Source: an uncultured bacterium | Lineage (GTDB): Bacteria; Babelota; Babeliae; Babelales; Babelaceae | Length of the DNA stretch: 64,000 nt | NCBI GenBank assembly: GCA_963713855.1 | Contig: OY970209.1 | Coordinates: forward strand, 736,001 to 800,000 | Reading direction: 5' to 3' | Part shown: one piece after another, positions 24,101 to 36,100 of the stretch | Layout of the letters: the number at the start of each line of letters is the position of its first letter | Numbering within the stretch: the first letter of the stretch is position 1 | Position numbers: made by a program

Positions 24101-27100
24101 AAAAAACAAATCAATACTAAAAGCTGCTGGCGTACATAAAAAGTCATGAAAGACCTTTCGTAATAAGTTGTTTAAAAGAACAACTCCATTACTACGGTCC
24201 ACATTTTTGATGGTAGCAGATATATTAATACACATTTTATATTTAATCAAATTTTTTTAATTTCTTTACTGAAAATCAAAATTTTTATGTAATGCGCATT
24301 TAAAAAAATGGCACGCGTGCTTGAGATGTCGTTTACCTAAGTAGAAACTGTATTCGTAAAATCGGTGCCATAAGACTTAGCTTAGACATCACTATTTTCA
24401 TGAAAAGATGGCGTTAGCTCGTACATGAGCATCGTTGAAGTATTGCACTATCAGCATGAAATAGTTTATAATTGAAATAAATCTGAATAAAAAAGGGACT
24501 ATTTATGAAATCTTTTATCAGATGTGCACTGGTAGTCGCCACAGTACTTAGCATGACATCTTTGGCAAACGCATATGAGTATAAAATTGGTAACTGCCTT
24601 AATGAAACTATCAGGGTGCAGCTCGTCGGCACCGGTTGGCAAGAAGGTGCTACGGGATTAGAGCGAGCAGGCGGTTGTACCGCTCCTACCATTGACGTGC
24701 CAGCGGGAGAAATAAGTCCAGTGATAGGAGTTCAAGGTGTTTCGGCGCCAGAGACTTGCTGCGCAGACCATCTTGTCGTTAATGGATCGATCACCATTCC
24801 ATTGGACCCACAAACTTTTTGTAGTCCAGTTGGGCTTCCGACTATTTATATTAGTAAGGTTGCAGCTACTGGTCACTTCGTTGCTTCTAAAACGACTTGC
24901 TATCCATAGGAGAATGTGGAGCTAAGTCTCTTGGTAAACCGGTAAACTGATGAATGAGATCGCGTATTTCCTGAGGAAGTTCTGAAAATTGCCTAGGATG
25001 AGGAAATGCGCCGACTAGGGTTGTTTCTGTTTCTTGAGGTTCTTGAATTTGCTGGTTTTCTAGAATTATCTCGTTTAAGTGTTGCATTCTTAAGCGCTCT
25101 ACAAGATAATCCCTTAACAATACCCGGATTCTTCGATGGTCCCCATTAGGTCGCTGCCTTTCACTATTATAAAGCTTTCTACCTAAGTCTTTAACACTGA
25201 GCTCAATATCCACCGTGCACCACAGTGCCACCTGCAGAATCAATCCGACCAAGTCAACATTTGCTTGTTGTACGGCTAAATGAAGCCCTTCTTCTAATGT
25301 ATTAAGCCACAATTCTCTGTTGTGCCTCATGTCCGCATTTGCTAATAACCATTGAGCATTTTCTGGGCGATTAGATCCTGTTGCGCATAGGAATGCAGAG
25401 GAAAACATTTCTTGATTTACTGGGGTGGCGCTATTTGCAACAATTTTTTGTAGGGTTGAAGGCGACCCTCTGGAGGCTGCCAGTTCAAGCATTAGTTTGG
25501 AATGCATAGTATCCAGAAACCAAGGAGTCTCAGGGCGGCTCACAAACGTAGCACTAAGGTCAAAGAGCGCAAGGTCGGTGATCCATCCAAGTAAGATTTC
25601 GACAACTAGGGGTTCATTACTATTTTCTGGGTTTTGTACAGTAATCCAAAACTTAGATATGTTCTTCCTTGAAGGTAAGATACTAAGAAGATTATGCGAG
25701 AGAAAGCAAAATAGAAGTGCTAATTTTTCATGAGTAGGTACGCCAAAGTACGTAAATTGAATTTTGTAAAATAGAGAAAGGACGTCAAGAATACCAATGC
25801 GCAAATTGTTACTAAAAAGCTGCAAGCTCTTAAGAAAAGAGGATAAAAAGTTGTGCATATGCATAAGCCGTTGAGGATCGCTCTTAGAAAAGAGGTCTGA
25901 GGCAGTACCAACAATTCTAGTAATACAAATTCCAAAACTCATTTCATCGAAAGAGGATCCATTTTTATGAAGTACCTTAAGCATTTTCTTCATCAGAGCA
26001 GCTTCTTCAGCATATTTCAAAGTCTTAAGGACTCTTGAGCATGCAAAACTTATAACTGTGTATGGATCTATCATTCGACCGTTGTCATCTTTCGTGGGTA
26101 TTCCAGCCTCTGCGTTTACGTCAGCTCCATGAGCTAAAAGGAAAGCCAATGCATCACAATAACACCCTCGCGCTGCAAGAAAAATGGGCCGGTCTTGGTT
26201 TTGGTTATTAGCTACAGCATCAACAGATGCCCCTCTTTCAACAAGTACAGCAATGATATCGGCGAAGCCGTTTTGCGCAGCAAGGTGAATACTTTGAAAA
26301 CCATCCTGATTGGTTATCGTTATATCAGGGCCAAGCGCAAGAATAGATAACGCTTCTTCTTTATTCTTTCGCTCAAGCGCATCTAAAAGCTTTTTTCCTA
26401 AATTGATTGCTGTTTTATCTTCAGATTCCTCCTGGCGAGGTTCGTCTTGATTTTGTCCCTCCATAGCTATGAGTTTTTCAAATAAGCCAAGAAATAAGCT
26501 GCACATAAGCGTTGCAAGTATGTGAGTGTACTTCATTACAGACAATCTCTTTTTGGTTAAAGTAATTCTGTATTAGCTACCTTTTATTATAATGAATGCA
26601 AGCCTCTTCCTAAACGAGCAAGTTCATGAATTTGAACGCGTATTTCCGCAGGAAGTTGCGCAATGTATGCAGGATGAGGAACCGCTCCTACGGATGTCGT
26701 TTCTACTGCGAGTGCTTCAGTTTCATTTGGTGCACCACGTAAAATGAGATGGCTAATGTTTAAGCGTCGTCGAAAATAATCAGATAATGATCGTCTCATG
26801 AGACGGTAGTTTTCGTTTCGTTGTTCTCCCGCTCTTTCTTCTTGAATTTCCCTACCATGGAGCATTCGACCCAATTCTCTGACATCAAGCTCGATATCAT
26901 GCTCGAGTGCAAAATCAAGAATTAATTTAACTTCGGGAACTTGTTCACGCAGCACAGCAAGGTAGAGTCCTTCGGCTAATGCGGCAAGCCATAGTTGTCT
27001 ATTATCTGAGACAGATGCATTACCTAATAACCATCGGACATTTTCTGCGCGACCGGACCCTGCTGCGCATATTAATGCGGCAGCAAACATTTCTTGAGTT

Positions 27101-33100: not shown

Positions 33101-36100
33101 AATGCGGTTTAGCACACGTCTCTGGAGCAAAAAATCTCGCAGTGAGCGCCTAATAGCTCGAAAAGTGTCATTAGGCTGTTGACGTTCAAATGCTGCAAGC
33201 ATTTGCCCTGGTTCTCTTACATTAAGCTCGACATTTTCGCGCATTCCTATAGCAAGGATACGGCTGACGGTAGGAAGGTGTCCTCCAATTGATGCGTGAA
33301 AAAGTGCTCTATTGAGAGCATCGAGCCAGATAGGGTCACGAATGTTTTTGATATTTGCAGACTCGTATATCCAGTCAAAGCAGTCAACACGGCCCGCCGC
33401 TGCGGCGTAAACTAATGCGGATGCAAACATATCTTTAGTTACTGGTGCTAAACTGCGTTCAAAAATTTCTTCCATTATATCGGGCCTACCTAAGGATGCT
33501 GCTAATTCAAACAACATGGTACAATGTAGGTTATCAAGAATTAAAGGTGCTTCCAAACTCGTATCGCAGTTGGTATATGAAGTAGCTCCTATTTTAGCGG
33601 CTTTATCGAGCAACCATTCCATTCTAACGGTAACTGGCAGAGTATTTCCTTTATCATCAACTACTTCGATACCGAACTGAGTAGCATCTTCAGTTGAAAG
33701 TGGGCCAGCGACAAGATCATGCGATAGGAAACAAGAAAGAAATATAAAAGTCTCATGATTGGTTAAGGCAAATAGGCGTGTTCCTGAAGGTTGCAAATAG
33801 AAGATCTTTAGTAATATATCAAGATCGATGCGCTTGTCGCTAAAGAGTTTCATACGCTCTAAAAAAGATTTTAGTAAGCGATATATATTAGATACTGTAT
33901 GGGTGTCCAGTCCATTAACAACAACTAATTCATTACCAATAAGGCTTCTGGCTGCTGCTACAATGAATGTAATGGCATAGTTCCAGCTTTTCTCATCGAA
34001 GGAAGCACCGCATGTAAAGAGTAGCTTTAATACGTTCTCCATGTCTGCGGCTTCTTGCTCATAGTTTCCAGACTTGAGCGCCCTTAAAAGTGCACCAGTC
34101 ACGACAATACCGAGAGCATTGGTAGGCTTTGTTCTCGTTATGCCATTAACTGATTTGACCGTTTTGTTCATTGTTGACGTTGCATCCGCACCGTTATTTA
34201 ACAGGAATGCTATGCAGTCATGACGAACTCTGGAAGCTGCAAAATGAAGGGGACGAGAGCCATCCTCGCTGGCGGCATCGATGCTTGCACCTCTTTCAAG
34301 AAGGATTTTTAGAATCTCAAGATAACCTCGACCGGCGGCTAGGTGAACGGCCGATCGCCCCGCGTCGTCAGTAATGGTGACATCGGTCTCGTGATCTTGA
34401 AGGATCCTTAAAGCTAGTTTACGATTCCCTCTTTTGAGTGCAATTAAGAGATTTCTTCCGTAAAATGCTGGATCTTTCTTGGTGTCGGTGCTCTTTGGTT
34501 TTTGCTTTGTGTCACTTTTCTGATCTTCAAGATCATAAAGTTTTCGCTTACCGTCGCCTATGGCAGAAAGCGTGCTAGGTAATCCTAGGCAAAACGCACA
34601 GGTAAGAGTTGCAAAAAATAAGCTGTTTTTCATTAACAAAATGCCTTTCTAAAGTTAGTGGGCGAGTACTTTAAATAAAAAAAGATCCTATCTTGAGGAC
34701 CTTTTTTGATAAAGAATGTTTCCACCTTAAAGACTAAACTAATTTAATAATATTTCAAGATTGTATTAATAAATAGTTTTTGGTTCGCTATTTTTCTCTT
34801 TTGAAGTACCGATTTTTTTGAATAGCTTTGCGGACTTTAAGCCTTTTTTTACTCTGTAACGTGTTCTTTTTTGAGGTACACTTTGACGCCGATGCCTATG
34901 AGAGCTATAAGTCCTAGCAAAAGGCCAATAAGTTTGAGTAAATCACTTAAAGAGGCCCATGACTGCATAAGGCCTGTAAGGAGTGTCAAGGTGCCACCCA
35001 TGATAAACCCTATTTCAAGTGGAAGCACTGGGATGAAAAATGCACCTAAGAATGCAAACAAAGCGATGATGATGGCTATGTAAAGATGAGTTTTTAGTGG
35101 AACTTCATTAACGCGCTTATATGTTGTATTTCTACTCTCACGTGCAACTTCGATGTTATTTCTCAATGTTGCAAGCTTTGATTCAAGAGCATTGACTTCT
35201 TTATCTATCTCTATGCTTTGTGCTGGTTGCTGTGTGCTGACGATTTTTTGAGTAATTTTTAATTCCCGAAGCTCTTCATCTGCTTCTCTCCTTTGTTTTT
35301 CTAAGTCTTTGCAGTTCACGCCTTTGTACTCGCACTGAATATCGTCATATGCGACAGTTGGTTTGATGACGCGGGCTAAAAGGTAAGCGACAAAAGGAAG
35401 TAGAAGTCCGATTGCGATGCTTAAAGTTATATCTCTTACAAGTGCAGCAAGTGTATGCGTCTTTCTAAGATCCATAATTATACCTTTCTTATATGATCAA
35501 TTTCATCGCAACTAAAACTATTGAGCGTCTATTCTTATCATCTGGATGGGTCAAGTATACGCTCCAGTTTATCTTTTGCCAAGATATATGAACGATTTGG
35601 TTTTTATAAGGAACAGTAAGTTTGATGCTTGTAATAGATGTATTGGTATTCTCTGAAAATTTGCATAAACTAGGTAGGCAGTTTTAAAATGCAAGAGAAT
35701 AGTCATGATTTTTTCACCGCAGCCAGCAGTTGTTTACATTATTACAAAGCTTGAACTTGGTGGAGCGCAAAAAGTATGCCTTGCCCTTTTTAAAGAGCTT
35801 CAAAAACGAAATGGAATTGTGTATCTCATCACCGGCAATGAAGGTGAGCTTGTTGATCAAGTGAAGGATTTACCGAACGTTTTTCTTCTTAAAAGCCTCA
35901 AACGCGAGGTGCGTTTTTTTTCTCTATTTTCAGAGGTTAAAACATTTTTTTCGATGATGCGCATTTTGCGTAACCTTAAAAAGAAACATGCAGATATCGT
36001 CGTTCATACTCATGGCTCAAAGGCTGGTGCATTGGGTCGATTTGCAGCATTTTTTGCCGGTATAAAAAAGAGAGTACATACGATCCATGGCTTTCCTTTT

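Follow-up and report, generated by a model that had tools for sequence, protein, structure and literature searches.

The window analyzed here, a 64,000-nt stretch of DNA, belongs to a protist-dependent bacterium and contains a tandem array of ankyrin-repeat genes on the negative strand, with one gene on the opposite strand among them. Gene 1 of the array (24887..26536, negative strand) encodes a 549-aa protein whose signal peptide leads into the dipeptide Met-Glu; the translation of 26459..26536 on the same strand reads MKYTHILATLMCSLFLGLFEKLIA-ME. An Ank_2 match above the cutoff lies at contig positions 762108-762380 (window 26108-26380), a second ankyrin match at 761010-761183 (window 25010-25183) falls below it (E 5.3e-4), and the C-terminal region of about 350 aa has no family. 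In the paralog alignment, a Shine-Dalgarno (SD)-like AGAG is located approximately 10-12 nt upstream of the first ATG of this gene. Gene 2 (26587..28239, negative strand, 550 aa), to which precomputed annotation assigns ankyrin Pfam families, carries the same junction, MKYAHFLAIIICTLGLLLPSELIA-ME (28162..28239, negative strand), and has an SD duplex energy of -7.0 kcal/mol at its start site. Its only homologs among 5.8 billion proteins were paralogs from its own genome.

The product of gene 3 (28307..29932, negative strand, 541 aa) is an ankyrin protein 46% identical to that of gene 2 over residues 170-550, and its signal peptide and junction, MKRTHFLFILISSLGFALPSKLIA-ME, span 29855..29932 on the negative strand. 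The opposite-strand gene (30241..31131, positive strand) encodes 296 aa with no Pfam family on scanning and with the N-terminus MFRFKTDFFRYLITFSLLGLAQAMQG-ME, the junction region being 30241-30324. In gene 5 (31197..32777, negative strand), which encodes a 526-aa ankyrin protein (Ank_4, 35.6 bits), the N-terminus is MKNACLFIALICILGLIPDKLLA-ME (junction region 32703-32777), and the signal-peptide region contains a 3-nt indel that preserves the frame. All five N-termini begin with lysines or arginines, followed by a hydrophobic stretch, and L-I/L-A-Met-Glu or G-Met-Glu. Gene 6 (32954..34633, negative strand), whose 559-aa ankyrin product matches Ank_2 at 74.6 bits, has a signal peptide ending in ...LPSTLSA-IGDGKRK without the junction and serves as an internal counter-example within the array. 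The array, cited as the example of the junction in the genome-wide survey's note, bears it in genes 1, 2, 3, and 5 and in the positive-strand gene but not in gene 6. A seventh gene (58657..59565, negative strand) is a further carrier; it encodes a 302-aa ankyrin protein (Ank_2 at contig 794930-795091) in which ...SPVSLIG-ME precedes an acidic stretch. Its neighbor (59858..60730, negative strand; 290 aa, Ank_2 at 38.3 bits) displays a variant junction, ...SASLVC-MH.

We evaluated how common the junction is in the genome, using 1,325 genes from our own crude gene caller and signal-like cores called by a hydropathy rule rather than by a trained predictor. The motif, defined as [AGSC]M[ED] with Met at residues 14-42, was found in 12 of the 717 coreless proteins and in 58 of the 608 that have such a core, for which its rate of 2.76e-4 past residue 60 predicts 4.9. 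The excess reported previously (61/629 versus 15/769) was therefore reproduced. Forty-five genes, including some that had been begun at the junction Met itself, were re-started since an in-frame start that gives a hydrophobic core lay upstream of the picked one; after this correction, 66 of 653 core proteins had the motif. At residues 14-44 of core proteins, no dipeptide was more enriched than Met-Glu (63 observed, 12.2 expected), and there was no clear enrichment of Met-Asp (16 versus 12.9) or of Met-Lys, Met-Asn, and Met-Gln. Among the 66 carriers, 62 junction Mets were followed by Glu, and the flanking positions comprised L26/I10/S9/A6 at -3, G26/A19/S11/C10 at -1, and E20/G12 at +3. In [AGSC]-x-E tripeptides of this genome, Met alone stood out at x, with 63 occurrences versus 2.3 expected. 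Glu followed the junction Met in 59% of cases here and in 41% in relatives, compared with 7-8% after other residues. Met and Glu at the junction are coupled, and the junction observation holds.

The motif acts at the amino acid level. The Glu codons at the junction (35 GAA, 19 GAG) occur in the genome ratio, 14 different codons are found at -1, and the codons ahead of the Met match genome usage. SD-like words 10-12 nt upstream of the first ATG in four paralogs, together with the in-frame 3-nt indel, show that the signal-peptide region is translated. The junction Met might nonetheless be a second functional start, so that each gene yields a long product for export and a short one that stays in the cytoplasm. 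An in-frame ATG is indeed kept at a fixed position, and initiation without an SD does occur in this genome, where a strong SD is missing from about half of the genes. However, SD pairing of -5 kcal/mol or stronger preceded none of 58 junction Mets (median, +0.4), fewer than the 10.7% of 840 control in-frame ATGs. The 60-nt folding energy was -11.9 kcal/mol at the junction ATG versus -9.7 at deeper control ATGs and -5.5 at annotated starts, and the GC content around the ATG was 0.445 at the junction versus 0.307 at annotated starts. Moreover, a second start would require neither a small residue at -1 nor an allowed one at -3 and would leave the Glu without a reason. We consider this explanation hardly credible. 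The junction Met does not resemble a site of initiation, a claim made before on an SD frequency of 1/61 and now strengthened by the count of 0/58 and by mRNA more structured than at control ATGs.

The carriers appear to have ordinary Sec-type signal peptides, with a K/R n-region, a hydrophobic core, and a c-region. The predicted signal peptides are 22 residues long at the median (interquartile range, 20-24), 57 of the 66 carriers have the Met 1-8 residues past the hydrophobic run, and K/R ahead of the core and an allowed residue at -3 are each found in 60. Proline occurs at -3 to +1 in a single carrier, and none of the 66 has a twin-arginine motif; the small residue at -1 in all carriers is a consequence of how the motif was defined. 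A Gibbs-sampled matrix gave no independent placement of cleavage sites. Judged by these sequence features, the position ahead of the Met fits the rules of signal peptidase I, with a site of the form [L/I/S/A]-x-[G/A/S/C] followed by Met-Glu, and we infer that cleavage occurs there. The exported protein would then begin with Met-Glu and continue with a charged stretch that has few hydrophobic residues. The n-region, the core, the small -1 and allowed -3 residues, the length of about 22 residues, and the presence of a single LepB are all as in the Sec/signal peptidase I system and its (-3,-1) rule. The genome also has one LspA and one prepilin peptidase. To our knowledge, ordinary signal peptidase I sites are nearly indifferent to the residue at +1 and have no coupling between +1 and +2. 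Here, in contrast, one protein class has a fixed Met-Glu, which is absent from 70 of 71 propeller proteins and from the 61 core proteins without the motif that were looked up.

The junction is class-specific. Of the 55 ankyrin proteins in this genome, 46 have a core, in line with the TM6/Dependentiae isolates discussed below. The motif is present in 26 of these 46, close to the 27/42 counted before, and absent from 20, versus 32 carriers among 562 non-ankyrin core proteins. The 66 carriers include 38 proteins above the ankyrin cutoff, one each of RING, LHH nuclease, and propeller proteins, and 20 without a family. The propeller family, with 71 members (58 with a core), contributes one carrier. 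Pfam families were looked up for 38 of the carriers and for 61 core proteins lacking the motif; none of these 38 carriers matched a housekeeping or envelope family. The junction is strongly associated, as proposed earlier, with proteins of the ankyrin, RING, and orphan classes and not with the propeller family (1/71) or with the membrane and housekeeping proteins sampled here.

In 28 relative genomes, 74 of 771 core proteins had the motif, compared with about 8 expected. Carriers were found in 21 of 74 core proteins in G003, 7 of 41 in G050, 7 of 24 in G052, 6 of 29 in G077, and 4 of 20 in G049, and the junction occurred in unrelated proteins from other genera and at least six families of the order. 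Four other lineages with many ankyrin proteins that have signal peptides showed none (G063, 0/55; G092, 0/24; G090, 0/16; G021, 0/16). Since these ankyrin-rich lineages lack the motif, the tag is not needed for general export of such proteins. The expectation that the motif would read out the effector repertoire of Dependentiae failed: whole lineages lack it, as do 20 of 46 ankyrin proteins here, and the motif alone cannot list that repertoire. It is not a universal effector marker.

Neither common descent nor cassette shuffling accounts for the motif. The carriers fall into seven clusters and 25 singletons, and the 13 gene pairs with only their 5' ends in common include no motif gene, which upholds the earlier argument against paralogy. 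In homologous pairs, Met was kept in 45% and Glu in 48%, versus 15-41% for the 26 other positions from -12 to +15. One seven-member family has [A/G]-Met in all seven proteins (five Met-Glu, two Met-His), with adjoining N-terminal residues that have diverged. A further explanation is that the Met is a fossil, an old start codon not yet decayed after a signal peptide was gained by upstream extension of the frame, with Glu present because export tolerates none but acidic residues in second position. An old start would be expected to place Met exactly at the first mature residue, turnover of these genes is fast, database searches returned no homologs outside the genome, and a few relatives (e.g., G046) have effector-like families that begin with Met-Glu and lack a signal peptide. 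Yet Met-Glu begins only 6.6% of ATG-started coreless proteins (and about 9 of those 39 are mis-called motif genes), as opposed to 62 of 66 junction Mets followed by Glu. An export filter would also pass Asp, Ser, Thr, Ala, Asn, and Gln, which are unenriched or weakly enriched. Retention of the Met in diverged homologs, highest together with Glu, and recurrence of the junction in unrelated proteins across the order likewise speak against a fossil, and we regard this origin as quite improbable.

The residues found after the junction Met in relatives bear on whether Met-Glu might be read in the host. NatB, which acetylates N-termini, has the specificity Met-Asp/Glu/Asn/Gln. A cleaved effector that shows Met-Glu, or less often Met-Gln, Met-Asn, or Met-Asp, would belong to the class of eukaryotic N-termini that retains the initiator Met and is acetylated by NatB; it might resemble a cytosolic protein made by the host, be modified alike, or escape N-terminal degradation signals. 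This is the earlier mimicry idea in a more specific form. The Met does need explaining: directly after a small residue at signal-peptide ends in relatives, it occupies 141 of 1,520 positions, second to Ala, and in their [AGSC]-x-E tripeptides it alone stands out at x (62 versus 4.7 expected). The residues that follow it there (n = 134) are led by Glu (52), Gln (16), Asn (9), Ser (8), and Asp (8). The four highest observed/expected values for [AGSC]M-x are those of Glu (62/4.7), Gln (26/5.6), Asn (14/3.6), and Asp (13/4.0), with Ala, Gly, and Thr at expectation. Together, Glu, Gln, Asn, and Asp comprise 65-70% of residues after the junction Met, as opposed to 25-28% of those that follow other residues. 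In relatives, both Ala and Thr are depleted after the Met (1.4% each versus 6-7%), as are Ala (2.0% versus 6.2%) and Ser (3.0% versus 11.1%) in G000, where Thr is not (5.9% versus 7.3%). In addition, K/R clusters resembling nuclear localization signals occur in 13 of 66 motif proteins, within 60 residues of the mature N-terminus, versus 34 of 587 other core proteins, which fits action within a eukaryotic cell.

Several observations weigh against reading in the host. In this genome the signal is overwhelmingly Glu; Gln, Asn, and Asp follow the junction Met at or below their rate after other residues, and Met-Asp, Met-Asn, and Met-Gln are barely enriched. NatB has been described to work on nascent chains at the ribosome, and its activity on an imported protein is undemonstrated; a literature search for NatB-acetylated bacterial effectors found no paper. 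General constraints of Sec export favor acidic and amide residues and avoid Lys and Arg right after the cleavage site, so the same preference is expected from export. Lineages without the motif likewise live in eukaryotes. Imitation of host N-termini is speculation with circumstantial support, and we hold reading in the host to be unlikely.

We tentatively favor the possibility that Met-Glu tags the mature N-terminus and is most likely recognized by the bacterium itself, for exit from the periplasm through a secretin-based system. Selection at the protein level would keep Met-Glu in one exported class, in which ankyrin-repeat proteins are joined by a RING finger, a nuclease, and a large number of orphans. 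Two secretins are encoded in the genome and nothing in it matched VirB4, FHIPEP, VipB, or TolC-type OEP, so a secretin-based system is the sole secretion route detected. We know of no linear N-terminal signal in type II secretion substrates, and a linear tag would thus be unprecedented for that route. A sorter in the bacterium does not explain why the first residue is Met over any other. The earlier reading of the junction as a dedicated cleavage and sorting motif of host-delivered effectors stands in that its position fits signal peptidase I. The genome has one LepB, and no candidate reader of the tag was identified in it; export beyond the periplasm, delivery to the host, and recognition of Met-Glu by a dedicated sorter are putative.

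Known systems share parts of this design. Like the junction, the RxLR-dEER motif of oomycetes and the PEXEL of Plasmodium are short motifs that sit near a signal peptide with an acidic stretch behind them, and they mark large, fast-evolving effector repertoires that can be listed from sequence. PEXEL cleavage leaves a defined N-terminus, which is then acetylated. These motifs, however, work in the secretory pathways of eukaryotes, at a distance of tens of residues past the signal-peptide cleavage site, whereas the junction is the predicted cleavage site itself, in a bacterium, and has no sequence relationship to them. The phytoplasma SVM signal also makes Sec-exported bacterial effectors recognizable by a feature of the signal peptide, but in that case common descent has conserved the signal peptide over its full sequence; here the carriers have signal peptides of unrelated sequence and only the junction in common, with no SVM_signal match among the 38 Pfam-scanned motif proteins.

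Lipoprotein sorting appears to be the nearest bacterial precedent for the proposed logic. Lipoproteins have a lipobox, L-[AS]-[GA]-C, and are subject to the +2 rule or, in Bacteroidota, to an acidic lipoprotein export signal. Their signal peptides share with the junction a class-specific motif at the cleavage bond, Leu at -3, and Gly or Ala at -1, and residues past +1, often acidic, set the onward destination. The junction differs in having Met rather than a lipidatable Cys at +1, so Lgt and LspA cannot act on it, and there is no sign of a lipid anchor.

A published report on TM6/Dependentiae counts 79 ankyrin proteins with a signal peptide out of 126 and names type II secretion as the sole system (PMC4378268); in another, signal peptides are reported for 44% of the coding sequences overall and for 78% of the ankyrin proteins (PMC6561590). 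We found no mention of a conserved junction in the portions of these two papers that deal with signal peptides, secretion, N-termini, and cleavage. The junction looks like a putative, undescribed tag of host-directed proteins.

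The genome under study is a single 1,521,901-bp contig with a GC content of 41%. A simple filter on codon usage and overlap gave 1325 genes, and starts were chosen by a Shine-Dalgarno (SD) duplex score, on the basis of a roughly 8-fold enrichment of AAGGA and AGGAG upstream of open reading frames. A hydrophobic N-terminal core, as defined by a hydropathy rule, was found in 608 proteins (core proteins) and was lacking in the other 717. The junction motif was defined as [AGSC]M[ED] whose Met falls within residues 14-42. It was present in 58 of the 608 core proteins and in 12 of the 717 proteins lacking a core, against 4.9 expected among the core proteins from the rate of the tripeptide beyond residue 60. 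Several of the coreless cases were genes that the SD-based picker had started at the junction Met, with an in-frame signal peptide upstream. After 45 genes were re-started, 66 of 653 core proteins were carriers of the motif. Our own gene calls agree with the 61 of 629 reported in the genome-wide survey's note. The most enriched dipeptide in the junction zone of the core proteins was ME (63 versus 12.2 expected), and MD, MK, MN, and MQ were near expectation.

Sec signal peptides with a signal peptidase I site combine a positively charged n-region with a hydrophobic core of about 7-15 residues; at -1 they have a small residue without charge, at -3 one that is small or aliphatic, and Pro is avoided between -3 and +1. 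All 66 carriers passed the hydropathy rule by construction. Lys or Arg preceded the core in 60 of the 66, the stretch before the junction Met had a median length of 22 residues (interquartile range, 20-24), and the Met lay 1-8 residues past the hydrophobic run in 57. Position -1, small by the motif's own definition, was Gly in 26 carriers, Ala in 19, Ser in 11, and Cys in 10; with -1 left unrestricted, 58 of 63 ME dipeptides were preceded by one of these four residues. At -3 we found Leu (26), Ile (10), Ser (9), Ala (6), and Val (3), with an allowed residue in 60 of 66, and Pro fell between -3 and +1 in a single carrier. Judged from sequence, the n-region, core, -1 and -3 residues, and Pro pattern of the carriers conform to a Sec signal peptide with a predicted signal peptidase I site. 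The genome has one gene each for LepB, LspA, and a prepilin peptidase; a second dedicated signal peptidase was not found in it, LepB giving one match only. LepB is predicted to cleave the bond before the junction Met. A Gibbs-sampled matrix built from 491 non-motif signal peptides offered no cleavage-site prediction, since it locked onto the Leu-rich core; for that reason, no meaning attaches to the 0-1 of 66 carriers in which it scored the bond preceding the Met highest.

The carriers were also compared with other types of signal peptide. The position that an invariant Cys occupies in a lipobox, +1, was Met in 66 of 66 carriers. Type IV prepilin-like (class III) signals have a short charged leader, Gly at -1, Phe or Met at +1, Glu at +5, and a hydrophobic segment after the cleavage site; in the carriers the hydrophobic segment precedes the bond, Glu is at +2, and only 26 of 66 have Gly at -1. 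As for Tat signals, neither RR before the Met nor [ST]RRx[FL] was seen in any of the 66. The phytoplasma signal model SVM_signal of Pfam had no match, at E values up to 0.01, in the 38 of the 66 motif proteins that were not flagged as ankyrin proteins. Following Met-Glu, +3 was Glu or Gly and +4 was Arg, Lys, or Gln. The 30 residues past the pair were enriched in Glu (1.78x), Arg (1.54x), Gln (1.45x), Asp (1.44x), and Lys (1.42x) and poor in hydrophobic residues, and K/R clusters occurred in 13 of 66 motif proteins versus 34 of 587 other core proteins.

A nucleotide-level signal was rejected. The Glu codons at the junction (35 GAA and 19 GAG) followed the genome ratio of 12794:7291, and 14 different codons were used at the -1 position, which places the signal on the protein and not on the DNA. 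A second functional start at the junction Met was likewise rejected as unlikely. SD pairing of -5 kcal/mol or better was found at 0 of 58 junction Mets (median, +0.4), compared to 10.7% of 840 in-frame ATGs used as controls and to 45% of the annotated starts of the same genes, the last value being inflated because the start picker itself used SD pairing. The 60-nt folding energy at the junction ATG was -11.9 kcal/mol, versus -9.7 both for deeper in-frame ATGs and for codon 23 of other signal-peptide genes, and -5.5 at annotated starts, which lie in open, AT-rich RNA. With ribosome-binding features absent from the junction ATG and the local mRNA structure stable, initiation there is highly improbable, and the survey's view that the internal Met is not a start holds.

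Five minus-strand ankyrin paralogs (526-559 aa) lie at 24887-34633 of the window. Each has N-terminal ankyrin repeats followed by a region of ~350 aa without any family. Four of the five begin with MK, a hydrophobic stretch, and L-(I/L)-A-Met-Glu; in the fifth (32954-34633) the signal peptide ends in LSA-IGD without the Met-Glu pair. When the DNA of the four carriers was aligned, conservation started at the first ATG, an SD-like GAGG, AAGG, or AGAG lay 10-12 nt upstream of that ATG, and the sole indel within the signal-peptide region was 3 nt long; the signal-peptide region is thus translated. An unrelated gene inside the array, on the plus strand at 30241-31131, has an N-terminus that runs to AQAMQG-Met-Glu. 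Directly adjoining the array is a 1712-aa protein with a signal peptide (19009-24147, minus strand); it gave a Fil_haemagg_2 haemagglutinin-repeat match of 38.1 bits, and the remainder is without a family.

Alternatively, the junction Met may be a fossil start codon. This account presupposes that ME is a common N-terminus; however, ME begins only 6.6% of the ATG-started coreless proteins (39, of which about nine are mis-called motif genes), and we regard it as improbable. A set of paralogs without a signal peptide in one relative (loci L081 and L143-L144, G046:C13) all begin with MEQ(S/P)xSP(L/T)LM(S/D)LP, an ME N-terminus on cytoplasmically made, effector-like proteins.

To define families, all proteins were clustered on their sequence from residue 51 onward (E < 1e-6, coverage of at least 50%). 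The 66 carriers fell into 7 multi-member clusters and 25 singletons, so paralogy as the sole cause was rejected; the survey had likewise placed the motif in 11 different clusters and in singletons. The large ankyrin cluster comprised 49 members, 46 with a core and 28 of them carriers. In a 7-member orphan family, five members were carriers and the remaining two had A-Met-His, so that the Met was kept in 7 of 7 while neighboring N-terminal residues diverged. Across 214 directional homolog pairs, which are not independent of one another, Met aligned to Met in 45% and Glu to Glu in 48%, the two highest values, with 15% to 41% kept at other positions. Shuffling of a signal-peptide cassette was examined by blastn of the -150 to +90 region of all 653 core genes and rejected: 13 gene pairs were similar only at the 5' end, and none involved a motif gene. 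The signal-peptide sequences of the carriers are unrelated to one another. Searched against a collection of 5.8 billion proteins, the tandem family (residues 170-550) matched only two proteins of its own genome, and the 7-member family matched only itself. The junction is independent of descent. Separately, five unrelated genes (g0233, g0384, g0679, g0832, and g1260 in our numbering) have upstream of them copies of a dispersed repeat of ~46-54 bp with 79-92% identity.

We evaluated which protein classes have the junction. Ank_2 (PF12796) exceeded its cut-off in 55 genes of the genome, 46 of them with a core, and the motif was present in 26 of these 46 versus 32 of the 562 other core proteins. 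Pfam annotation covered 99 proteins, namely the 38 motif proteins not flagged by Ank_2 and a comparison set of 61 motif-free core proteins taken from the window and the same loci. The minus-strand sequences submitted to Pfam were offset by one codon, so that they lacked the initial Met and extended into the stop codon, with no effect on the domain matches. Among the 38, 10 exceeded the cut-off of an ankyrin family, 5 more had sub-threshold ankyrin matches, and 20 had no family over threshold. There was also a zf-RING_2 protein (L129:14004-14363), a protein with an LHH nuclease domain (L117:7711-8568, minus strand; 71.6 bits) and an A-Met-Glu junction, and one protein barely over the cut-off of the Lactonase propeller model. 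The comparison set held 14 Lactonase-type propellers; 4 ankyrin proteins; 9 proteins of housekeeping or membrane type (MraY-like transferase, UppS, NhaA, NDK, RNase HII, Ppx, HAD, MoxR, and an AAA_33 kinase-like protein); 6 others (haemagglutinin-repeat, LRR, pentapeptide/DnaJ, PT-HINT/Ntox21, MVL, and a weak SprB match); and 28 proteins without a family. A 71-member propeller family contained 1 carrier. The class pattern noted by the survey was reproduced over the annotated proteins, and the Met-Glu junction shows specificity for ankyrin, RING, and orphan proteins.

The LHH protein of L117 and the product of L127:2680-3537 (minus strand) are two polymorphic-toxin-type proteins with signal peptides; the latter has PT-HINT and Ntox21 domains and is without the junction. 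The nucleoside diphosphate kinase at 1760-2254 of the window (minus strand; NDK, 168 bits) has an N-terminal hydrophobic signal-like segment and may therefore be exported. In the 71-member Lactonase/WD40-like propeller family, the mature part begins with a conserved pattern of its own: the signal peptide is followed by A/G-x-Cys and then Y-x-L-P-x-G-S, as in HTAICPLAGANYVLPGTS and AHAVCPLLSGISYTLPSGS. This second class-specific junction, with Cys at +2, is found in the window at 12399-14690, 15874-18183, and 49650-51962 and in loci L119, L124, and L130. The dipeptides ranking next after ME at residues 14-44 of the 608 core proteins were mostly Cys-containing (FC, CS, CF, CP, SC, and LC, at 2.7-4.1x expectation). 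Cys is unusually abundant at the ends of signal peptides in this genome, and the propeller family accounts for only part of this.

We next evaluated how common the junction is in related genomes. Regions of 18.6-200 kb each from 28 genomes of the same order were passed through the same pipeline. Part of the regions were arbitrary, including that of G050, and the rest were picked by ankyrin density; the motif was never a criterion. A phylum-wide search yielded only genomes of the same family or order, and the results are confined to that order. In the pooled relatives, 74 of 771 core proteins carried the motif versus ~8 expected from summed per-genome expectations. Enrichment was seen in G001 of the same genus (9 of 84), in G003 (21 of 74) and G004 (6 of 36) of the same family, and in G050 (family f15, 7 of 41), G052 (f17, 7 of 24), G077 (f19, 6 of 29), G049 (f13, 4 of 20), and G042 (f4, 3 of 9); it was weaker in G007 (3 of 34) and G005 (2 of 36). 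Little or none was seen in G063 (f11, 0 of 55), G092 (f5, 0 of 24), G090 and G021 (each 0 of 16), G018 (0 of 31), G020 (0 of 22), G013 (1 of 68), G027 (1 of 35), and G046 (1 of 19). With small samples and kindred genomes, all these counts serve as presence data and not as proof of absence. The survey's observation is confirmed and extended, the junction being present again in several families of the order.

The carriers of the relatives were mostly unrelated to those of the genome under study, blastp matches being almost only at the level of ankyrin repeats; one likely ortholog in the sampled relatives, G001_019, also has G-ME. Ankyrin paralogs of G012 have LHG-Met-Leu-Glu in place of the motif. 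The seven ankyrin paralogs at L110 (G012:C2:1680001-1700000), 375-754 aa long, have a common signal-peptide end, (H/S)G-Met, followed by Leu-Glu-(V/F) in six and Arg-Ala-Ile in one; in the six, the Met is kept and the Glu is shifted by one residue. Motif-free ankyrin clusters have Ala-rich junctions, such as LPAA in G063 and AAQ in G092. At L100-L102 (G063:C1:1380001-1440000), short ankyrin proteins (~200-320 aa) are densely clustered. Their signal peptides terminate in (L/Q)-P-A-A or a similar sequence, and none has Met-Glu there (0 of 55); this ending may represent another junction particular to the lineage, or just common descent. The proposal that the effector repertoire of Dependentiae can be read from the junction is not borne out for the junction taken alone, as 20 of the 46 ankyrin core proteins and whole lineages are without it; it is no universal effector marker.

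To follow the residue after the Met without presupposing it, we defined a junction independently of +2: a small residue and then any residue X, at most 8 residues past the hydrophobic run and with a polar stretch after it. In the relatives, X was Met in 141 of 1520 junctions, the second most common residue. Glu followed the junction Met in 59% of cases in the genome under study and 41% in the relatives, versus 7-8% after other residues. Glu, Gln, Asn, and Asp together followed it at these predicted cleavage sites in 70% (71 of 101) and 65% (92 of 141), respectively, versus 25% and 28% after other residues, and were mostly Glu. Ala and Thr each followed the junction Met in 1.4% of the relatives' cases versus 6-7% after other residues; in the genome under study, Ala and Ser were depleted and Thr was not (5.9% versus 7.3%). 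Selection on the protein maintains the coupled Met-Glu at the predicted +1 and +2 positions.

N-termini in which Met precedes Asp, Glu, Asn, or Gln are substrates of NatB. The set of four residues counted together above is the same, which is a lead for, not a demonstration of, host mimicry. Cleaved effectors would expose Met-Glu, and in the relatives also Met-Gln, Met-Asn, or Met-Asp, a class of N-termini that eukaryotic cells keep and acetylate by NatB. Bacterial Sec/secretin cargo would then look like a host-made cytosolic protein and could be modified, stabilized, or localized by the host's N-terminal code. On the other hand, the effect is mostly Glu. With Glu excluded, Gln, Asn, and Asp were ~2-fold enriched in the relatives (34 of 83 versus 271 of 1266) but not clearly so in the genome under study (11 of 41 versus 232 of 1189). 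We consider such a reading by the host possible but rather unlikely.

Dependentiae (TM6), a widespread group of obligate protist parasites, have signal peptides on nearly half of their proteins and, to our knowledge, no recognizable dedicated effector injection system. Besides Sec, only two secretins were detected in the genome under study, and these were its sole outer-membrane secretion channels found; they are encoded by adjacent genes at contig positions 253699-254193 and 259054-259557; VirB4, FHIPEP, VipB, and TolC-type OEP had no match in this genome, whose marker-gene completeness is 91%. The secretin domains belong to open frames of ~1000 aa that share a strand and are separated by 5 kb (G000:C1). 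In published work, type II secretion was the only system detected in one TM6 isolate and signal peptides were predicted in 79 of its 126 ankyrin proteins (PMC4378268), gspD was present in two copies in all seven TM6 genomes compared (PMC4776705), and in another isolate signal peptides were carried by 44% of the coding sequences overall and by 78% of the ankyrin proteins (PMC6561590). No description of a conserved Met-Glu junction was found in the literature searched, including the sections consulted of these three papers.

The reading that we tentatively place first is that Met-Glu serves as a post-cleavage N-terminal tag, perhaps read by the bacterial export pathway. It ranks ahead of a host-side reading, which in turn ranks ahead of a fossil start and, last, a second functional start. 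For the question of how envelope proteins are told apart from the many proteins destined for the host, a short protein-level junction gives a concrete handle. In the lineages that use it, the motif can prioritize, per genome, ~60-70 candidate effectors. Reading of the Met-Glu N-terminus by the host, if it takes place, would amount to a new form of molecular mimicry; such mimicry by effectors would be a new principle, and effectors in part of the phylum could then be identified by a sequence rule.
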